Shown here piece by piece: positions 47,259 through 58,609 of a stretch of DNA of 64,000 nt. Position numbers and translations under genes: made by a program. Below the pieces are notes generated by a model, which saw only the letters and a list, made by a program, of their open reading frames with translations, ran no database searches and was not told where the DNA came from. Origin of the DNA: Planctomycetota bacterium. GTDB lineage: Bacteria > Planctomycetota > Phycisphaerae > UBA1845. Within the stretch, counting starts at the first letter, position 1. Each line of letters opens with the position of its first letter. Where the stretch lies: assembly GCA_038043285.1 (NCBI GenBank), contig JBBTCJ010000022.1, positions 15,539 to 79,538 on the forward strand, in the 5' to 3' direction.

Positions 47259-47287
47259 TTGACGGTCCGAGAAAAATGTAGTATATT
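47259..47287 (+). promoter_or_regulatory. Near-consensus sigma-70 promoter upstream of dnaG-rpoD
   Basis: It reads TTGACG-17 nt-TATATT in an AT-rich intergenic region, ~90 nt upstream of the dnaG ATG. Confidence 0.55.
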
Positions 47288-49316: not shown

Positions 49317-51130
49317 ACACAACCGCGACGGAACACAACACGCAAGCAATCCAGACCGCCACCGACGAGCTCCTTCGGCGGGGGAAGGAGCGGGGGTTCG
49401 TCACCTGGGAGGAGATGAACTCGATTCTCCCCGACGACGCCGTGGACCCCAACGAGCTGGAATCGATCCTCCTTCGGCTGGAAGCGGAAAAGATCGAGAC
49501 GCTCGACGAGTTGGACGCGGCCAGAGTGGATCGGAAGCGCCGGCCCTCGAACGGTCCCAACGGATCATCGGCGCCGGTTCCACCAACCCGCGCCGCCTCT
49601 CGCGCATCGTCTTCGGCACGTGCGGGCAGCGCGCTGCGGCGTCCGGCCGCGCCGGCGCCCTCGGAGTCCTCCGGGGACGACGACACCGGTCAGGACACGG
49701 ACATCGAGACGATCGTGGTCGAGGTCGGCCCCAAGCGGATCGATGACCCGGTGCGCATGTACCTGACGCAAATGGGCGAAATCCCCCTGCTGACCCGCGA
49801 GGAGGAGATTCGACTCGCCAAGAAAATCGAACTGACGCGAATGGCCTTCCGGCAGAAGGTGCTGGAAAGCGACTACTGCGCCGGGCTGGCGGTCGACATT
49901 TTGCAGCAGGTGCATGACGGGGCCCTGCCCTTCGATCGGACAATGAAGATTTCGACGTCGGAACATGCGGCCAAGACGCGGATCAGCACGCGGATCCCCG
50001 GCAACCTGGTGACCGTGCGGGCGATCCTGGCGCGGAACGCGGAGGTTTGGGAGCAGTTCCAGGCGCCGCGCCTGGCCGCCGGGACGAGGCGGACCCTCGA
50101 AACCGACCTCCGCGAGCGTCGGCGGAAGGTTTCGCGGCTGCTGGAGGAGCTTTCGCTTCGCACCAGCCGGATCACGCCGCTGATGCGCAAGCTCCGCGGG
50201 CTGCACCGCAAGATGGTCGAGCTTCAGAAGCGGCTGGCGTCCCAGGAGAAACGGCGAACGCTTCCCGACGACGAGATCCAGGGAATGACCGAGGAACTTT
50301 CGGGCATCAAGTCGTTGTGCCTGGAGGAGCCGGAACAACTTGAACGCCGGTTGACCTGCATTCATCGCGTGTTCAGCGAGTACGAGGACGCGAAGCGAAA
50401 GCTTTCCGGCGGCAACCTTCGGCTGGTGGTGAGCATCGCCAAGAAGTACCGCAACCGGGGTTTGAGCTTCCTGGACATCATTCAAGAGGGCAACACCGGT
50501 CTGATGCGCGCCGTGGACAAGTACGAGTACAAGCGCGGGTACAAGTTCAGCACCTACGCGACGTGGTGGATTCGCCAGGCGATCACCCGGGCGATCGCCG
50601 ATCACGCACGGACCATCCGCATTCCGGTGCACATGATCGAGACCATGAGCCGGCTTCGGAACATCAGCAAAGAACTTCTGCAAGACCTTGGACGCGAACC
50701 GACGATCGAGGAGATCGCGCGACGCGCGAAGATGCCGATCGTGGAATGTCGGCGGGTGTTGAAGATTTCGCGGCATCCGATCTCGCTGGACCGTCCGGTG
50801 GGCGAGAGCGAGGATTCGTACTTTGGCGATTTCATCGAGGACGAGCGGGTCGAGTCTCCGGTGGGGACGGCCGGCGGCGGCATGTTGAAGGACCGCGTCG
50901 AAGAAGTCCTCAAGACGCTGACCTACCGCGAACGGGAAATCATCAAGCTGCGCTACGGCATCGGCGACGGGTACACCTACACCCTTGAAGAAGTCGGGAA
51001 GATCTTCAAGGTTACCCGCGAGCGCGTGCGGCAGGTGGAGGCGAAGGCCATCCGCAAGCTGCAACACCCGGTCCGCGCCCGGAAGCTCGAAGGCTTCCTG
51101 GACCAGATGAAGTCCCAGTCGTCGGCGTGA
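49313..51130 (+). CDS. rpoD: Primary sigma factor (sigma-70)
   Basis: The ATG overlaps the dnaG stop (ATGA). Motifs are '[11 protein letters not shown]', '[12 protein letters not shown]', '[38 protein letters not shown]' and '[22 protein letters not shown]'. Confidence 0.95.
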
Positions 51131-51235
51131 GGCGATTCACGTGATGTTCATTCTCCTTTCGCAATGTGAATCTCTCCGCGTGGACCGTAACGTCGCGGAT
51201 CTGCCGGCGCCCCGGCAATTCAAATCACCTTGGGT

Positions 51236-51844
51236 ATGAAACCGCACCAGGCGTGGATTGCTCGGATTCGGCCCCCGTTCGCCGCCTGCGCGACGTCGTG
51301 CGCGATCTTCTCCATCAGCGGCTGCGGATCGCGTGTGCCCGCCAGCGCGGCGTTGGCCGACGTCGAGGAAGTGCGGCTGTCCGAAGGCGAATCGGCTGAG
51401 GTCGCCCTGGGAGCCGGCGCGTTAAGTTTGGCGGATTCGGTCTGGGGACTTTACAAATCAGAGGACGACTCGCTGCTGTTCCGGGTTCGCTTCGGAGGCA
51501 GCGGCGAGATTGTCGAGGTATTCGACAGCTTCGTGCTCGGTCAGCCGTGGCTGGGGTCGAGCGTCACGCCCGACGGTCAACCGCATGCAACGGAGTTTGC
51601 CGGCGGGAGGTACGTCGCGGGCGGCTACTGCGCCGAGCAATCCGGGCGAATCGGCGTGGTTGGGGTGATTCATGGGCTTCTTTCAGGCGCGCACCTTGGA
51701 ACAGCCCGCGTGGCCTTTTACGGTCCGCTCGCGGACGATCCCATCGATGGAACGTTCGAGCGCCGGGTGACGATTCTCGGCGAGACCCCCTTCACGCCGC
51801 CGGGCGACGCGACGTTCGCCGCTTACGCGGTGCTGGAGGAGTAA
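51236..51844 (+). CDS. Hypothetical lipoprotein
   Basis: The N-terminus 'FAACATSCAIFSISGCGS' contains a lipobox. I recognise no family. Confidence 0.45.
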   Translation: MKPHQAWIARIRPPFAACATSCAIFSISGCGSRVPASAALADVEEVRLSEGESAEVALGAGALSLADSVWGLYKSEDDSLLFRVRFGGSGEIVEVFDSFVLGQPWLGSSVTPDGQPHATEFAGGRYVAGGYCAEQSGRIGVVGVIHGLLSGAHLGTARVAFYGPLADDPIDGTFERRVTILGETPFTPPGDATFAAYAVLEE

Positions 51845-52192
51845 TCCGCCAAGCCGGGAGGCTCAGCCGGTTCGATGCCTTGCCGCGTATGCAGGCCGCG
51901 GCCTTCAGCACATGCCGAGGTGCGAACGCCCGTCATTTCCAAACGTCGGTCGACTTTCTCGTCACCGCGCAGACCGCTTACCCTTCACGAACATCAGCGA
52001 GGCCTGTGAAATTCGCCGGGCTGACCGCGGACGGGGTGGCCTTGATGCGCTCCCTTGCGCCGCCGTCGAGCAGGCCGTGCAACGCACGCGCATGGCGGGC
52101 TTCGCGGTGATGATTGACGCGTGGGTCGAGCGATTCGCCTTCGGGGTTCAAGCGGTTCGTGGTCTTTGGTTGGGACGGAGGGTGCCAGGAGG

Positions 52193-52241
52193 ATAAAAAC
52201 CGGGCGGACGGTGCCGCCGTGGCGTCAAGCACCATCCGCCC
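52193..52241 (-). terminator. Rho-independent terminator downstream of the tiny Lys-rich ORF
   Basis: The minus strand reads gggcggatggtg...caccgtccgccc followed by GGTTTTTAT. Confidence 0.65.
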
Positions 52242-52348
52242 ATGATTCGGTGTGCCGTGCCCGCTTCCATCACCGTCGCGATGCTTGACCGGCTGCCGTG
52301 GCGAGAGTCGGCCGAAAACGATCGCGTCAAGGCGACGCGGGCATAAGC

Positions 52349-52411
52349 TTACTTCTTCTTCTTGCCCTTCTTCACGGTCTTCTTTGCAGCCTTCTTGCGT
52401 TTCTTAGCCAT
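52349..52411 (-). CDS. 20-aa lysine-rich micro-ORF (MAKKRKKAAKKTVKKGKKKK)
   Basis: An AAGGGGG SD lies 8 nt upstream of the ATG. A consensus promoter lies ~25 nt upstream and a terminator ~110 nt downstream. A longer in-frame ORF (up to 52759) exists but looks non-coding. Confidence 0.4.
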   Translation of the reverse strand: MAKKRKKAAKKTVKKGKKKK

Positions 52412-52436
52412 TGGCGTCACCCCCTTTCTGGACGAA

Positions 52437-52464
52437 ATACTACACAATGACTGGACGCTGTCAA
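52437..52464 (-). promoter_or_regulatory. Consensus-like sigma-70 promoter driving the micro-ORF
   Basis: The minus strand reads TTGACA-16 nt-TAGTAT, with TG upstream of the -10 element. Confidence 0.55.
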
Positions 52465-53258
52465 AGGGTTTTTCGTCCGCCAACGCAATTTTGCCTCGTC
52501 TGGATGGTCCGATGACAAGTCGTCGGCGCGTCCTTCGATCGATCCCATCGACGACCGCGCGGCGCATTCGCGCGGTGATCACGCGGGCGATGGGATCCTC
52601 GCGCGACGGCGCTTCCAGCGCGCGCGAAACGATCCGGCAGCGCGCGTGGAGCGGCTCGTTGCGTGGTCGATTCAGAGGTCGGGCGGCCGCCGACGGGAAT
52701 CGCGCAGGCGGGTTTGTCGGTCCCGCGGCGGGGCCTGCCGCGGTCCACAAAACATGCAAATTCTCCGGTAAACTCTGGGTTTTCCGTCATCCCGCAACGC
52801 CCGTCGCGCTCCGTTCCGGATCATCGCTGCGCGCGGAGGCGGCGTGGTCGTCCGCGGACTGGAGGGCCCGCGCCGCGCCGCCCGCCGAGTTCCATTCGGC
52901 GCAGAGAACGATAATCCAACGACGGTTCTGTTGGAGTGGATCACAGCGCCGTGGTTATCGGTCGCGCGGCGTGCGAACGCACGCCGTGGTGGATGGCGCG
53001 GGCCTGCGCACGGCGCGAAAATCGGCGCAAAAAATTTTGTAAAATTTTTGATCGAAGGCGTTGAATCGCCTTGACGCGATCGCGCCGTAGCGCATTTTGA
53101 ACGATCGCCGTACCCCCGACGCGCGGTCCGCGCGAGCATCCCACACGGAACATGGATGCTTGCAGTTGCCGGCGACGTTCGCGGAAACCATCACCGCGAG
53201 AGCGCCGCAAGTGAACCGCTTCGTTGGGGGTTTGTCCGTGAGGCGACGGTGCGATGGG

Positions 53259-53954
53259 CTACGACGCGGCGCCGACAGGGCAGGAAGGCCGCGTGAACGC
53301 CGCCGCGGTAATCTCGGAGTGAAACCGGAGCACCGCGTTCATCCCGATCAGTTCCAATCCCGCCGCCCTGGCTGAGCGGACAAGCTCGCCGCGCGGAATC
53401 GGATAGCGTTTGCTCCTGCGTCCGGTCCGCCGTTCCTTCCGTAAACGCTTCCAGGCGAAGAACGAGTGCGCGTCGAAGAACGTCACCACCACGCCGCACC
53501 GAGCCACGCGGGCCAATTCGCGCAGGAGCTGGTCGCGTTGCCCCGGGTCGCAGACGTGATGGATCAAGCGGCTGCACAGCACCAGATCGACGGCCCCGTC
53601 CCGCAATGGAATCTCCAACGCCGACCCGACGGCGACTCGGGGAGGCCTGGAGAAAAGGTCGTGCATCGGGCGACCTTCGTGGAGCATGGCCGCCGAGGCG
53701 TCCATGGCCGTCGCCCGCAATCCCTCGCGGGCCAACAGCGGGAGAAATCGCCCGGTTCCGCTGGGCAGATCGAGAACCGTAGCGCAGTCCGTCCGCGAAC
53801 GGATGCGTCGGATCGCGCGGGCCACGACGCGCTGCTCGCGGAGGTCCGCCAGCCGCTTCCCCAGCGAACGATCGTGCTTCTTCGCGTAATTCTTGGCGTG
53901 CTCGGGGTTTTGATAGCTTAGGGAAACCAGATCCACGCGACGGCTCCATGGCAC
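53259..53954 (-). CDS. Class I SAM-dependent methyltransferase
   Basis: The sequence 'VLDLPSGTGRFLPLLAREGLRATAMDASAAML' is motif I of this class. Confidence 0.8.
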   Translation of the reverse strand: MPWSRRVDLVSLSYQNPEHAKNYAKKHDRSLGKRLADLREQRVVARAIRRIRSRTDCATVLDLPSGTGRFLPLLAREGLRATAMDASAAMLHEGRPMHDLFSRPPRVAVGSALEIPLRDGAVDLVLCSRLIHHVCDPGQRDQLLRELARVARCGVVVTFFDAHSFFAWKRLRKERRTGRRSKRYPIPRGELVRSARAAGLELIGMNAVLRFHSEITAAAFTRPSCPVGAAS

Positions 53955-54124
53955 CCCGTGCCTGACCTGGGCCTTGTGGGACGGGGACGGCTATCCTAGC
54001 CGACGGACCATTGTAGCGGCCATGCTTCCAACCGGCGAATGCACGCGGCGGCCTCGGTCGATATCCTTCCCTGCGACGGCAGGCAACGAGGCTATGATAG
54101 GGGCGGCGCAGGGGAGCTTTGCCA

Positions 54125-54601
54125 ATGGCCCAGGAACGTCCCAAACGATTCGTGGAATGGCTGACGATCCTGCGGCAGCGCTGGCCTATGGTGCGGCAAC
54201 AGGCGGTCGAGTGGTGGTCGCAGGTGCGCGAGGAGCCGCGCCTGCTTGGGGAAGCGCCCGTCGTCCGTTACGCGGCGTATGGTCTGGGCGGTCTGATCGC
54301 CGTCTGGACCCTTCAGACCATCGTGCAAACAATCACCCCGCCGCCACCCGCATCCGCGCAGGCACGGACGACAACGGCTGACTACTACGTCGTGTGCACG
54401 AGTCCGGCGTGCGCGGAGCACTTCATCGTCCATCGCGCGTTCGGCTTCGATGGTTTCCCGGTCAAGTGTCCGAAATGCGGAGGTAAGACCGGTTTCTCCG
54501 CCCGCCCTTGCGCTTCCGCCGAGTGCCAGGGACGATGGGTCGTGCCCCAGGAGGTTGACGGCGTGCGCCAGTGCCCACACTGCGGGTCGCGCTTGAATTG
54601 A
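54125..54601 (+). CDS. Membrane-anchored double zinc-ribbon protein
   Basis: It has one TM segment ('YAAYGLGGLIAVWTL') followed by two Cx4C...CxxC units ('CTSPAC...CPKCGG', 'CASAEC...CPHCGS'). Confidence 0.5.
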   Translation: MAQERPKRFVEWLTILRQRWPMVRQQAVEWWSQVREEPRLLGEAPVVRYAAYGLGGLIAVWTLQTIVQTITPPPPASAQARTTTADYYVVCTSPACAEHFIVHRAFGFDGFPVKCPKCGGKTGFSARPCASAECQGRWVVPQEVDGVRQCPHCGSRLN

Positions 54602-54636
54602 GGATTCGGGAGTCGCGCCGCCCGCACGTCACGCGG

Positions 54637-56393
54637 TCAAGGTCGCGGAGGGCTGAAGGCTTCGGCGAACGCGGCGACGTCACGCAAGTCCGTCGCCCGA
54701 GCACAACGGAGGCTGTTTCGATCGGCCTGGGGTCCGCCGAGGCATTCGTAGAGGAGGAGCCAATCGTCGGCATCCACATCGCCGTCGGCGTCAAAGTCCC
54801 CTCGCCGCGGCTCGTGGACGATCAGACGCTGGCTGCCCGGCAAGCCGCGGATCGTCTGCACGATCGCGCTGGCCGGCCACTCGACCTGCACGCGATGAAC
54901 CGAACCCGGCGCGGAGCCTAGTCCGAAATGCGCGAAGGTTTCGTCCTGCGACATGAAGTTGCTGTTGGCGGCGATCTGGCGAGTCTGCGTCGGTCCACCC
55001 GCCTCGGCCTGAACGCGTACGAGCCGCCCAACCCCAAGCGGTTGGTGGTTGAGCCGCGCAGCTCGACTTGCAGCCAGCGGTTCTCGCTGCCGCGATGGTT
55101 CCGGTACAAGACCGGATACCCGGCGTGGTTGACGATAAACATGTCCATGTCGCCGTCGCGGTCGAAGTCGAAGACCAGGAAGCCTTTACCCGATCCGGTA
55201 TCGTTGAACCCGCGTGAGGCGCCGACCTCGGCCATGACGCCGGCACCGTCGTTGTCCCACAACCACTTGGGCTGATTGTGGAACTTGTCCTCCGCCGTGG
55301 TCCAGGGAAAGTTCTGGCCGTTGGTCATCCCCAAATCCAGGTCGCCGTCGTTGTCGTAGTCGAAGAAGGCCGCCCCCCATCCCCATGCGCCATCGCGAAC
55401 GCCGGCGGCGGCGGTCGCGTCAGCGAAATGCCCGGTCCCGTCGTTTTCGTACAGGCGATTCCCCGATCCTCCCCACCCGACGTTGCAAACGGTCGGAGTG
55501 CAGACCAAGTTAGGGTCGTAGATCGCGGAGACGAACCAGTCGAAATCGCCGTCGTTGTCGTAATCCGCGATCGACGACCCCATGCCGTTCTCATCCGTGC
55601 CGACACCCACCTCGCGGGTCACGTCGGCGAAGGTTCCATTCCGAAGATTGCGGAACAGGCGGCTGGTCTTGAAATCGGCGGCGACCAGCAGGTCGGGCCA
55701 TCCATCATCGTCGAGGTCCGCAAAGCCGCCGGCGAAGCCCATCATTCCGGGCGCAGCCAGACCTGATGCGTCCGTTGCGTCGATGAAGCGCCCGTCACCC
55801 GCGTTGACGTACAGCCGGTTGAGCCGCCCGGACTCGTGCCAACCGACGACGTGCAGGTCGAGGTCGCCGTCCAGATCGAAGTCGCCGAAGGCGGCGCTGG
55901 TCCAATTCTTCGGCGTGAACGCCTGCATGGTCAATCCCGCGGCGAGCGATCCGTCGAGAAACGTCCCGTCGCCTTGATTGACGAAGAGATAGTTTTGCTG
56001 GGTGAGGGTGAGCACGAGCAAATCAAGATCGCGGTCGTTGTCCACGTCGCCCCAGGCGCATCCGGAACTGAAGGCGTCGAGACCCACGCCGGCCGCGGCG
56101 GCGACTTCCTCGAACGTCCCATCGCCGCGATTGTGGAAAAGAAGGTTGGAAGCTTCCAGTCGCGTAACGTACAGATCCACCCACCCGTCGCCATCGAAGT
56201 CGCCGGCAGCCGCCCCGCCGACCATGGCGGTCATTCCAAGGCACATCTGCCGGCATTGATCCCAATCCCAGTGAAGGAAGCTCACCCCTGCGGATTCGGC
56301 GACGTTCTCGAACCACGGAGGCCCGGCCAGCGCCCCCTTCGGCAAGATCAACGCGGCGCAGGCGAACACGGTTCGCGAAGATGCGATTCGCAT
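54637..56393 (-). pseudogene. FG-GAP/VCBS + ASPIC/UnbV + dockerin-like protein interrupted by a -1 frameshift (or a sequencing error) in a G-run
   Basis: The 491-aa ORF (54918-56393) loses family-like sequence after 'NRLGLGG'. The UnbV continuation 'VRVQAEAGGPTQTRQIAANSNFMSQDETFAHFGLG...VQVEWP' is in another frame (ORF 54637-54954). The shift maps to the cccc run at 55032-55035. Confidence 0.65.
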
Positions 56394-58072: not shown

Positions 58073-58609
58073 TTGCGTGCACGGCTCCATTTCGCATGGT
58101 ATCGTGCATCCACCGTGTCCGAGCCACTCGCGTTTCTTATCACCTTTCGCACCTACGGCTCTTGGCTCCATGGCGATCCACGAGGGTCGGTGGACAACGA
58201 CCACAACATCTTCGACACTCCCATGCTCGATCCCAAATCGTCTTTGTCGGTTGCGGAGAGCAACCGGCTCCGACACCCGCCTGTCGCCCTGACCGAAGCC
58301 CATCGTTCGGTGGTCGCGGACGCGATTCGTCGAGTCTGTGACGAGCGTCATTGGACGCTCTCGGCTCTGAATGTCCGAAGCAACCACATCCACGCGGTAG
58401 TCTCCGCCCCCGACTCTCCGGAACGCGTCATGCACGCCCTGAAGTCGTTTGCCACGCGCGCCCTGCGTGAATCAGGCCTGGCCGCTGCGGGCACTCGTCT
58501 CTGGTCGCGGCATGGGAGTACACGCTATCTATGGGAACCCCGCGAGCTGGAAGGAGCCAACTTCTACGTCGTAGAAAGCCAAGGCCCGGACCGCAGGGGC
58601 GAACTCTGA
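58073..58609 (+). mobile_element. REP-associated tyrosine transposase (RAYT; IS200/IS605-like Y1 HUH transposase)
   Basis: The sequence 'FLITFRTYGSWLHGD', the HUH motif 'SNHIHAVV' and the candidate catalytic-Tyr segment 'GSTRYLW' (its assignment as the catalytic Tyr is an inference) support the call. The start is uncertain (TTG at 58073 or GTG at 58115). Confidence 0.8.

Follow-up and report, generated by a model that had tools for sequence, protein, structure and literature searches.

The tiny polybasic proteins of the ribosome include bL37, with 24 amino acids (aa), and bS22/mS38, with about 33, of mycobacteria, Bacteroidota and Borrelia, as well as eL41, with 25. The bS22 of Borrelia (10.1101/2023.04.16.537070) and the Coxiella peptide CLaSP (10.1101/2025.11.08.686982) were both missed by annotation and found from cryo-electron microscopy (cryo-EM) density, and tiny polybasic ribosomal peptides are expected in more bacteria (10.1101/2023.04.16.537070; 10.1101/2025.11.08.686982). 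The H1-like protein Hc2 of Chlamydia differs in length between variants that have gained or lost short Lys-rich repeats (PMC2848022); H1-like proteins bind DNA, and AlgP of Pseudomonas binds polyphosphate granules (PMC9239181). Here we analyze a 64,000-nucleotide (nt) stretch of a groundwater Phycisphaerae-like metagenome-assembled genome (MAG) of the Planctomycetota (assembly GCA_038043285.1, contig JBBTCJ010000022.1, positions 15,539 to 79,538), called the window below and numbered from its first base. On its minus strand, between 52464 and 52193, lies a compact unit built around a 20-codon open reading frame (ORF), the micro-ORF MAKKRKKAAKKTVKKGKKKK (52411-52349, ATG to TAA, 20 codons plus stop), and closely similar micro-ORFs are found in Hyphomicrobiales, where their substitutions are of the coding type. 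We consider it probable, though far from secure, that the unit is a genuine translated gene for a polycationic micro-protein, the peptide of which would act in trans on a polyanion.

A preliminary description of this locus had presented it as a self-contained unit with promoter, Shine-Dalgarno (SD) sequence, ORF and terminator, and each of these elements lies, base for base, where it had been placed. A perfect consensus -35 hexamer, TTGACA (52464-52459), is followed after a 16-nt spacer by the -10 hexamer TAGTAT (52442-52437), so that the site agrees with the consensus at 10 of 12 positions. Only three sites in the 64-kb window, both strands included, score at least 10/12 in a promoter scan, compared with about 1.0 in block shuffles, and one of the other two precedes dnaG, where a promoter is expected. 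That site, TTGACG-17-TATATT (47259-47287, plus strand; about 90 nt 5' of dnaG), is the other best promoter-like site and plausibly serves the dnaG-rpoD pair. Assuming the customary spacing of 7 nt from the -10 hexamer, transcription of the unit is predicted to start at about 52430-52429. The SD sequence AAGGGGGUGA (10 nt; AAGGGGGTGA; 52426-52417), with 8 nt between its G-run and the ATG, offers 10 consecutive positions able to pair with the 3' tail of 16S rRNA, one of them as G-U; the tail used here is the canonical sequence, the window itself carrying no 16S gene. It is the longest SD of the start regions inspected in the window, those of rpoD, MoxR and the FG-GAP gene having 4-7 nt. The earlier description of a self-contained unit with strong signals is supported. 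An intrinsic terminator, consisting of a G+C-rich stem (52241-52202, 13+3 pairs) and the T-run TTTTT (52199-52195), follows 108 nt after the micro-ORF stop.

The predicted peptide contains 12 Lys (11 AAG and one AAA codon) and one Arg among its 20 residues, for which the earlier label "poly-lysine" is fair. Lysine makes up 2.8% of the codons in the genes of the window (297 AAG versus 81 AAA), and the longest run of A in the micro-ORF is three nucleotides despite its 12 Lys codons. An origin of the lysine tract as a simple tandem repeat or microsatellite was ruled out, since TRF reported no tandem repeat in it.

Metagenomes were scanned for related ORFs with a degenerate DNA pattern that fixed M-A-K-K, a K/R-type register and K-K-stop. 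Looser lysine patterns were swamped by AT-rich phage poly-K tails on viral contigs; on the same kind of contigs the final pattern gave no match. The metagenome scan yielded two matches, of which L213 was dismissed as AT-rich poly-K junk. The other, L214, lies on a 1.66-Mb contig of 63.5% G+C and encodes MAKKRKKAAKKPAKKRRKKK followed by a stop (20 aa), 6 nt after an AGGAGG SD. The gene downstream of it is a yghU-like GST gene, close homologues of which are labelled Hyphomicrobiales. We examined the contigs of six of these homologues, representing ten loci (L215-L224), and all share the order gatB, about 600 nt, micro-ORF, about 270 nt, terminator, GST, DUF2147, with a micro-ORF of 20-24 aa at the same place in 10 of 10 loci. 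The peptides comprise MAKKRKAKAKAKPAKKRRKKK, a variant of it with one extra AK pair (23 aa), and MAKKRKAKAKAAKKPAAKRRKKK, MAKKRKTKAAAKKTAKKTKRRKKK and MAKKRKAKAKKAKKTKRRKKK. The stretch from SD to ATG, AGGAGGGCAGCAATG, is invariant among the Hyphomicrobiales loci, as are the two ends of the micro-ORFs, MAKKRK at the N terminus and KRRKKK-stop at the C terminus, and every change in length is a multiple of 3. In these end blocks all five variable nucleotide sites are synonymous (AGA/CGA, AAA/AAG twice, CGT/CGC and TAG/TAA), which has a probability of about 1.5e-4 by chance given that 17% of the possible single changes are synonymous. Isolated lysines tend to be encoded by AAA and runs of lysine by AAG, so that A-runs do not exceed five. 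As far as alignments can tell, the synonymous-only sites, the in-frame insertions and deletions and the avoidance of A-runs are marks of a translated ORF. The family as a whole follows the pattern MAKKRK, a K/A/T/P-rich spacer of variable length, K(R/G)(R/K)KKK and a stop.

The window micro-ORF agrees with that of L214 in length (20 aa), in the C-terminal KKK-stop and in all of residues 1-11, within which six codons differ synonymously, including CGC versus AGA at Arg5; over the whole ORF there are seven synonymous and four non-synonymous codon differences. When the window is aligned with the family, M1, A2, K3, K4, R5, K6 and the last KKK are invariant, and the window shares with the family an SD-led ATG ORF of 20-24 codons that starts with MAKKRK, ends with KKK-stop and has at least 60% Lys plus Arg. 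With an nhmmer profile built solely from the Hyphomicrobiales loci, a single significant match appears in the window (52413-52312, minus strand, E = 1.3e-6), which covers the ORF alone, and a profile of the Hyphomicrobiales upstream regions gave a non-significant match only (E = 0.07), in the same intergenic region. Since the ORF is matched and its flanks are not, the shared unit is the ORF and not the surrounding RNA, which upholds the view that it is the ORF that recurs elsewhere. The window has KGKKKK in place of the KRRKKK block and lacks the conserved 5' untranslated region, the 270-nt 3' RNA and the gatB/GST synteny; its unit is neighboured by rpoD, a lipoprotein gene and a methyltransferase gene, among which no gat-gene link between the two lineages was found. 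From these comparisons, homology of the window ORF with the Hyphomicrobiales family, as opposed to convergence, is probable. An AT-rich block, caaaaattttacaaaattttttgcg in minus-strand reading (about 53020-53050), stands out in the otherwise 65-70% G+C intergenic region and resembles, at the E value of 0.07 given above, the repeated palindromic AAATTTTTTTGCG motifs 5' of the Hyphomicrobiales micro-ORF (L215 3209-3403).

If the micro-ORF is a gene of this kind, a sigma-70-type promoter would start a transcript of about 235 nt, the unstructured and purine-rich 5' end of which would present a very strong SD and the 20-codon ORF, while its 3' two-thirds would form a stable hairpin domain and the intrinsic terminator. 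Translation would yield a 20-residue peptide with a net charge of about +13, and this peptide, not the RNA, would be the element shared with the Hyphomicrobiales family. It would act in trans as a polycation, with rRNA or the ribosome as the leading candidate for its partner and DNA, the nucleoid or polyphosphate as alternatives. The ribosome takes first place in this list because, to our knowledge, essentially all characterized bacterial peptides of such size and charge are ribosomal.

The preliminary description had further likened the peptide to bL37, bS22 and eL41, an analogy that database searches do not support. Sequences of bL37 and bS22, verified against the PDB, served as positive controls: in the same PDB search the bL37 query found bL37 chains at 4e-11, and Mycobacterium smegmatis (Msm) bS22 found bS22 at 1e-13 and mS38 at 0.1-1, whereas the window peptide (phmmer) and a seven-sequence family profile (hmmsearch) found nothing at E <= 10. 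BLASTP produced no alignment of the window peptide with bL37 (24 aa, MAKRGRKKRDRKHSKANHGKRPNA), a protein of the 23S/5S pocket close to the peptidyl transferase centre, at E <= 100. Neither the peptide nor the family matched Pfam or NCBIfam at E <= 10, the bS22/mS38 families (AURKAIP1-COX24_C, DUF1713) included; bS22/mS38 is a bent helix of about 30-33 aa, and the micro-ORF peptides have a variable length of 20-24 aa. No match to eL41 or bTHX appeared in the PDB-wide search, which covers ribosome entries and has limited sensitivity for short, biased sequences. Beyond structural databases, the exact peptides are absent from a collection of 15 billion proteins, plasmid searches by tblastn and blastn were negative, for which the low-complexity filter is possibly responsible, and the motif strings MAKKRK(K), KRRKKK and similar returned nothing relevant from searchable full text. 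By topic, the literature yielded no analogues beyond those named here.

Three other readings concern the frame itself. Public annotation of the identical contigs in ENA and Logan places a 133-aa product over the micro-ORF (136 aa if begun at TTG; 52349-52759, minus strand; public call L081 1399-1800, hypothetical protein), which also stands as a cluster representative (P0173), and the real gene could accordingly be this long in-frame ORF with a Lys-rich C-terminal tail. This possibility is effectively refuted. Across the upstream 116 codons of the long ORF, the G+C content at the three codon positions (GC1/2/3) is flat at 0.66/0.62/0.68, compared with about 0.65/0.47/0.80 in the real genes of the window, and neither Pfam nor NCBIfam matches the 136-aa ORF. 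HMMER against 1.84 billion cluster representatives finds only the ORF itself and two low-complexity sequences. Because of this flat profile and the absence of homologues the 136-aa ORF is not a gene, and the short ORF is, as had been claimed, the credible coding sequence; the promoter and SD of the unit moreover sit inside the long ORF, directly before the internal ATG. It is also very improbable that the coding strand is the opposite one, with a Leu/Phe-rich hydrophobic peptide resembling a type I toxin as its product and the minus-strand transcript as its antisense. Antisense frames are indeed open and hydrophobic in the window and its relatives, and over one Hyphomicrobiales micro-ORF a gene caller took the opposite strand (L220, 38-aa ORF, 2545-2661). 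We nevertheless rejected this idea since neither a start codon nor an SD is conserved on that strand; the hydrophobic frame of the window opens straight after a stop and has TTG as its only start, and it is the lysine strand that carries promoter, SD, ATG, stop and terminator, all of them conserved. Less easily set aside, but still improbable, is a fortuitous ORF, that is, an open purine-rich spacer of no peptide function that resembles the Hyphomicrobiales micro-ORFs through low-complexity convergence. The ORF is a singleton within its lineage at the loci compared, and its three Ala codons (GCT, GCT and GCA) are rare ones in this genome. Since the public copies (ENA and Logan contigs, Hainich groundwater) are all 100% identical to the window, they provide no population variation, and low-complexity matches are easily over-read. 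Chance would nevertheless have to place 12 Lys codons in one frame between an ATG and a stop, behind a top-three promoter and an SD of 10 nt and ahead of a terminator. It would also have to account for the identity with L214 in residues 1-11, in length and in the KKK-stop at the C terminus, and for the complete match to the invariant MAKKRK block of the family.

A different question is whether the RNA, and not the peptide, is the functional product. The transcript could be a dual-function RNA or contain a regulatory ORF, in which case the RNA would be the effector or a cis-acting leader, and translation of the ORF would remodel the downstream structure or sense translation or the status of Lys/Arg-tRNA; we regard this as unlikely. 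The 150 nt of the window at 52345-52196 reach a folding energy of -74.5 kcal/mol, equalled by only 1 of 200 shuffles (z = -3.09), and this fold contains a long irregular hairpin in the 3' untranslated part of the transcript (52258-52343, minus strand). Directly after the micro-ORF stop, a weak terminator-like hairpin, CGCGUCGCCUUGACGCG followed by AUCGUUUUCG (52339-52323, minus strand), is mutually exclusive with the long hairpin. The SD and ORF part of the window transcript is unstructured (z = +0.24), its fold as a whole is unremarkable (z = -0.96) and no antiterminator competing with the terminator stem was found. In Hyphomicrobiales the micro-ORF, a 270-nt structured RNA and the terminator form a conserved unit of about 400 nt (L215 3566-3965, with equivalents in L214 and L216-L224). 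This RNA has 14 compensatory pairs, compared with 5.3 +/- 1.6 in shuffles (0 of 500 reach this number) and 1-8 in slid controls, and includes the long-range helix GGGCGUCGGCG/CGCCGACGCCC. Its start-codon region pairs just past the stop, its SD pairs with CCUC just before the terminator, and the terminator ends about 46 nt 5' of the GST gene; codon sensing would fit the synonymous-only changes equally well. Rfam has no match at these loci, and at 50000-55000 of the window none apart from one sub-threshold ssnA fragment that lies away from the unit. The Hyphomicrobiales transcript may represent a leader or dual-function RNA that has yet to be described. However, helices 1 and 2 of this RNA, in which the SD and the start codon take part, are conserved without compensatory change, and GST has no obvious tie to the supply of Lys or Arg. 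The flanking RNA is dissimilar between the two lineages, in which the ORF alone is similar. In the window there is nothing for the unit to regulate in cis, since the terminator is followed by about 350 nt without a credible ORF and then by the 3' end of the convergent lipoprotein gene (51230-51844, plus strand). The earlier suggestion of a structured small RNA (sRNA) with an incidental ORF is weakened but keeps some weight, given the folded 3' region of the window and the conserved structured RNA around the Hyphomicrobiales copies.

Several observations weigh against a translated gene with a trans-acting peptide, which we nonetheless prefer. The peptides compared across phyla are short and of low complexity, and L214 came from a search that had prescribed the K/R register, so that the unforced matches are Arg5, Ala8 and Ala9, for which we estimate only p ~0.01. 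A codon-sensing leader ORF would leave the same synonymous-only marks in the Hyphomicrobiales alignment. The peptides have no sequence relation to any known ribosomal micro-protein, and their middle, variable in length and often containing Pro or Gly, speaks against a snug rRNA pocket of the bS22 or eL41 kind. Within Planctomycetota, no K-rich micro-ORF occurs at 80 rpoD loci from GTDB genomes (best RpoD identity 79%), where the dnaG-rpoD order is conserved and the region downstream is not, and none occurs at three loci with orthologues of the methyltransferase (about 55% identity), which have different neighbours. The synteny of the lipoprotein gene led to relatives that are only about 50% identical and stand in a different context, again with no copy of the micro-ORF. 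The window has no close relatives, its RpoD being at most 79% identical to those of Phycisphaerae MAGs, and since the lineage is too sparsely sampled these missing copies are not evidence of absence.

The unit lies in a stretch of 1.4 kb (51845-53258), flanked by two convergent or tandem genes, that is unusually long for this genome and in which the micro-ORF is the sole credible protein gene; the small ORFs of 85 aa and 76 aa predicted within it match no family. It is preceded in the window by ilvC, PilZ, dnaG, rpoD and the gene for a 204-aa lipoprotein and followed by genes for a class I methyltransferase, a Zn-ribbon protein, an FG-GAP protein, MoxR, an IS200-like transposase and mutL. The IS200-like Y1 transposase ORF (58073-58609, plus strand) is some 5.6 kb away from the unit. 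The 17-nt sequence TCGCCTTGACGCGATCG forms a perfect inverted repeat with arms at 52319-52335 and 53066-53082, 730 nt apart; these are its only two perfect copies in the window, and the micro-ORF lies between them together with its promoter and about 600 nt of upstream sequence. One of the arms overlaps the hairpin at 52339-52323 right after the micro-ORF stop, and CTTGACGC occurs three times within 860 nt around the unit (seven in the window versus 3.6 expected). No target-site duplication was seen at the inverted repeat, which could be an operator or delimit a small mobile element. In another Phycisphaerae MAG (L028 6889-7065, minus strand), about 3 kb upstream of dnaG-rpoD, an AGGAG SD precedes the gene for a 58-aa protein, MAKKKAKKKAAKKKVAKKKTKKKVAKKKCSAKTCKPKKKKAKKKVAKKKAKKKAKKKK (MAKKKAKKK...KKKK). 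This protein has no Pfam or NCBIfam match and may belong, as a longer relative, to the compositional class of the micro-ORF peptide.

The micro-ORF family is probably new and unannotated, whereas its general kind, tiny polybasic bacterial peptides, is known. The ribosome components bS22, bL37, bL38 and CLaSP were unannotated and met by accident in cryo-EM density; the route taken here is the reverse, from sequence signals to a candidate and from comparative data to an ORF kept in frame across a bacterial order. If the peptide is real, it would add a new family to the bacterial small proteome, correct the 133-aa mis-annotation in public assemblies and provide a concrete target for work on the cellular role of a 20-residue peptide of charge +13, ideally in a cultivable member of the Hyphomicrobiales. 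If the ORF is only regulatory, the Hyphomicrobiales RNA would still be an undescribed conserved structured RNA. More speculatively, and with doubts about the whole of the proposal, MAKKRK...KKK peptides might be a widespread overlooked class of micro-proteins in at least two phyla, binding the ribosome or rRNA or acting as an encoded polyamine, and missed because they fall below the length limits of gene callers and are destroyed in tryptic proteomics; the Hyphomicrobiales gene would in addition lie in a structured RNA, giving a dual-function transcript.

Compared with known systems, the family shares features with three of them. Its short ORF rich in one residue, alternative hairpins and terminator recall leader attenuators and dual-function sRNAs (the his/trp leaders, peTrpL/rnTrpL of Sinorhizobium, SgrS/SgrT and RNAIII/hld); in Hyphomicrobiales, moreover, a gene begins shortly after the terminator and the structured RNA is conserved. 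Unlike in leader attenuators, however, no gene follows on the same strand in the window, and only the ORF is common to the two lineages. With bL37, bS22, eL41, bTHX and CLaSP the family shares the size class of 20-33 aa and a content of 60-70% Lys/Arg, and with tiny ribosomal proteins generally a stand-alone gene with strong expression signals; the MAK start is also that of bL37. Whereas the tiny ribosomal proteins have a fixed length and helices containing Arg, His and Leu, the family is almost pure Lys/Ala and varies between 20 and 24 aa by in-frame insertions and deletions. In this respect it is closer to the H1-like proteins Hc2 and AlgP, which have the same AKK, PAKK and AKAK type of composition: as in H1-like repeats, the number of AK units varies (21 versus 23 aa in L215 and L218), PAKK and AAKK are present, and the window peptide carries AAKK and TVKK units. 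H1-like proteins, in turn, have 100 to more than 300 aa and many possess a folded domain, in contrast to a peptide of 20 aa with the conserved, non-repetitive ends MAKKRK and KRRKKK. The family thus resembles the ribosomal micro-proteins in size and charge and the H1-like proteins in composition and plasticity of length, and it is a member of neither.

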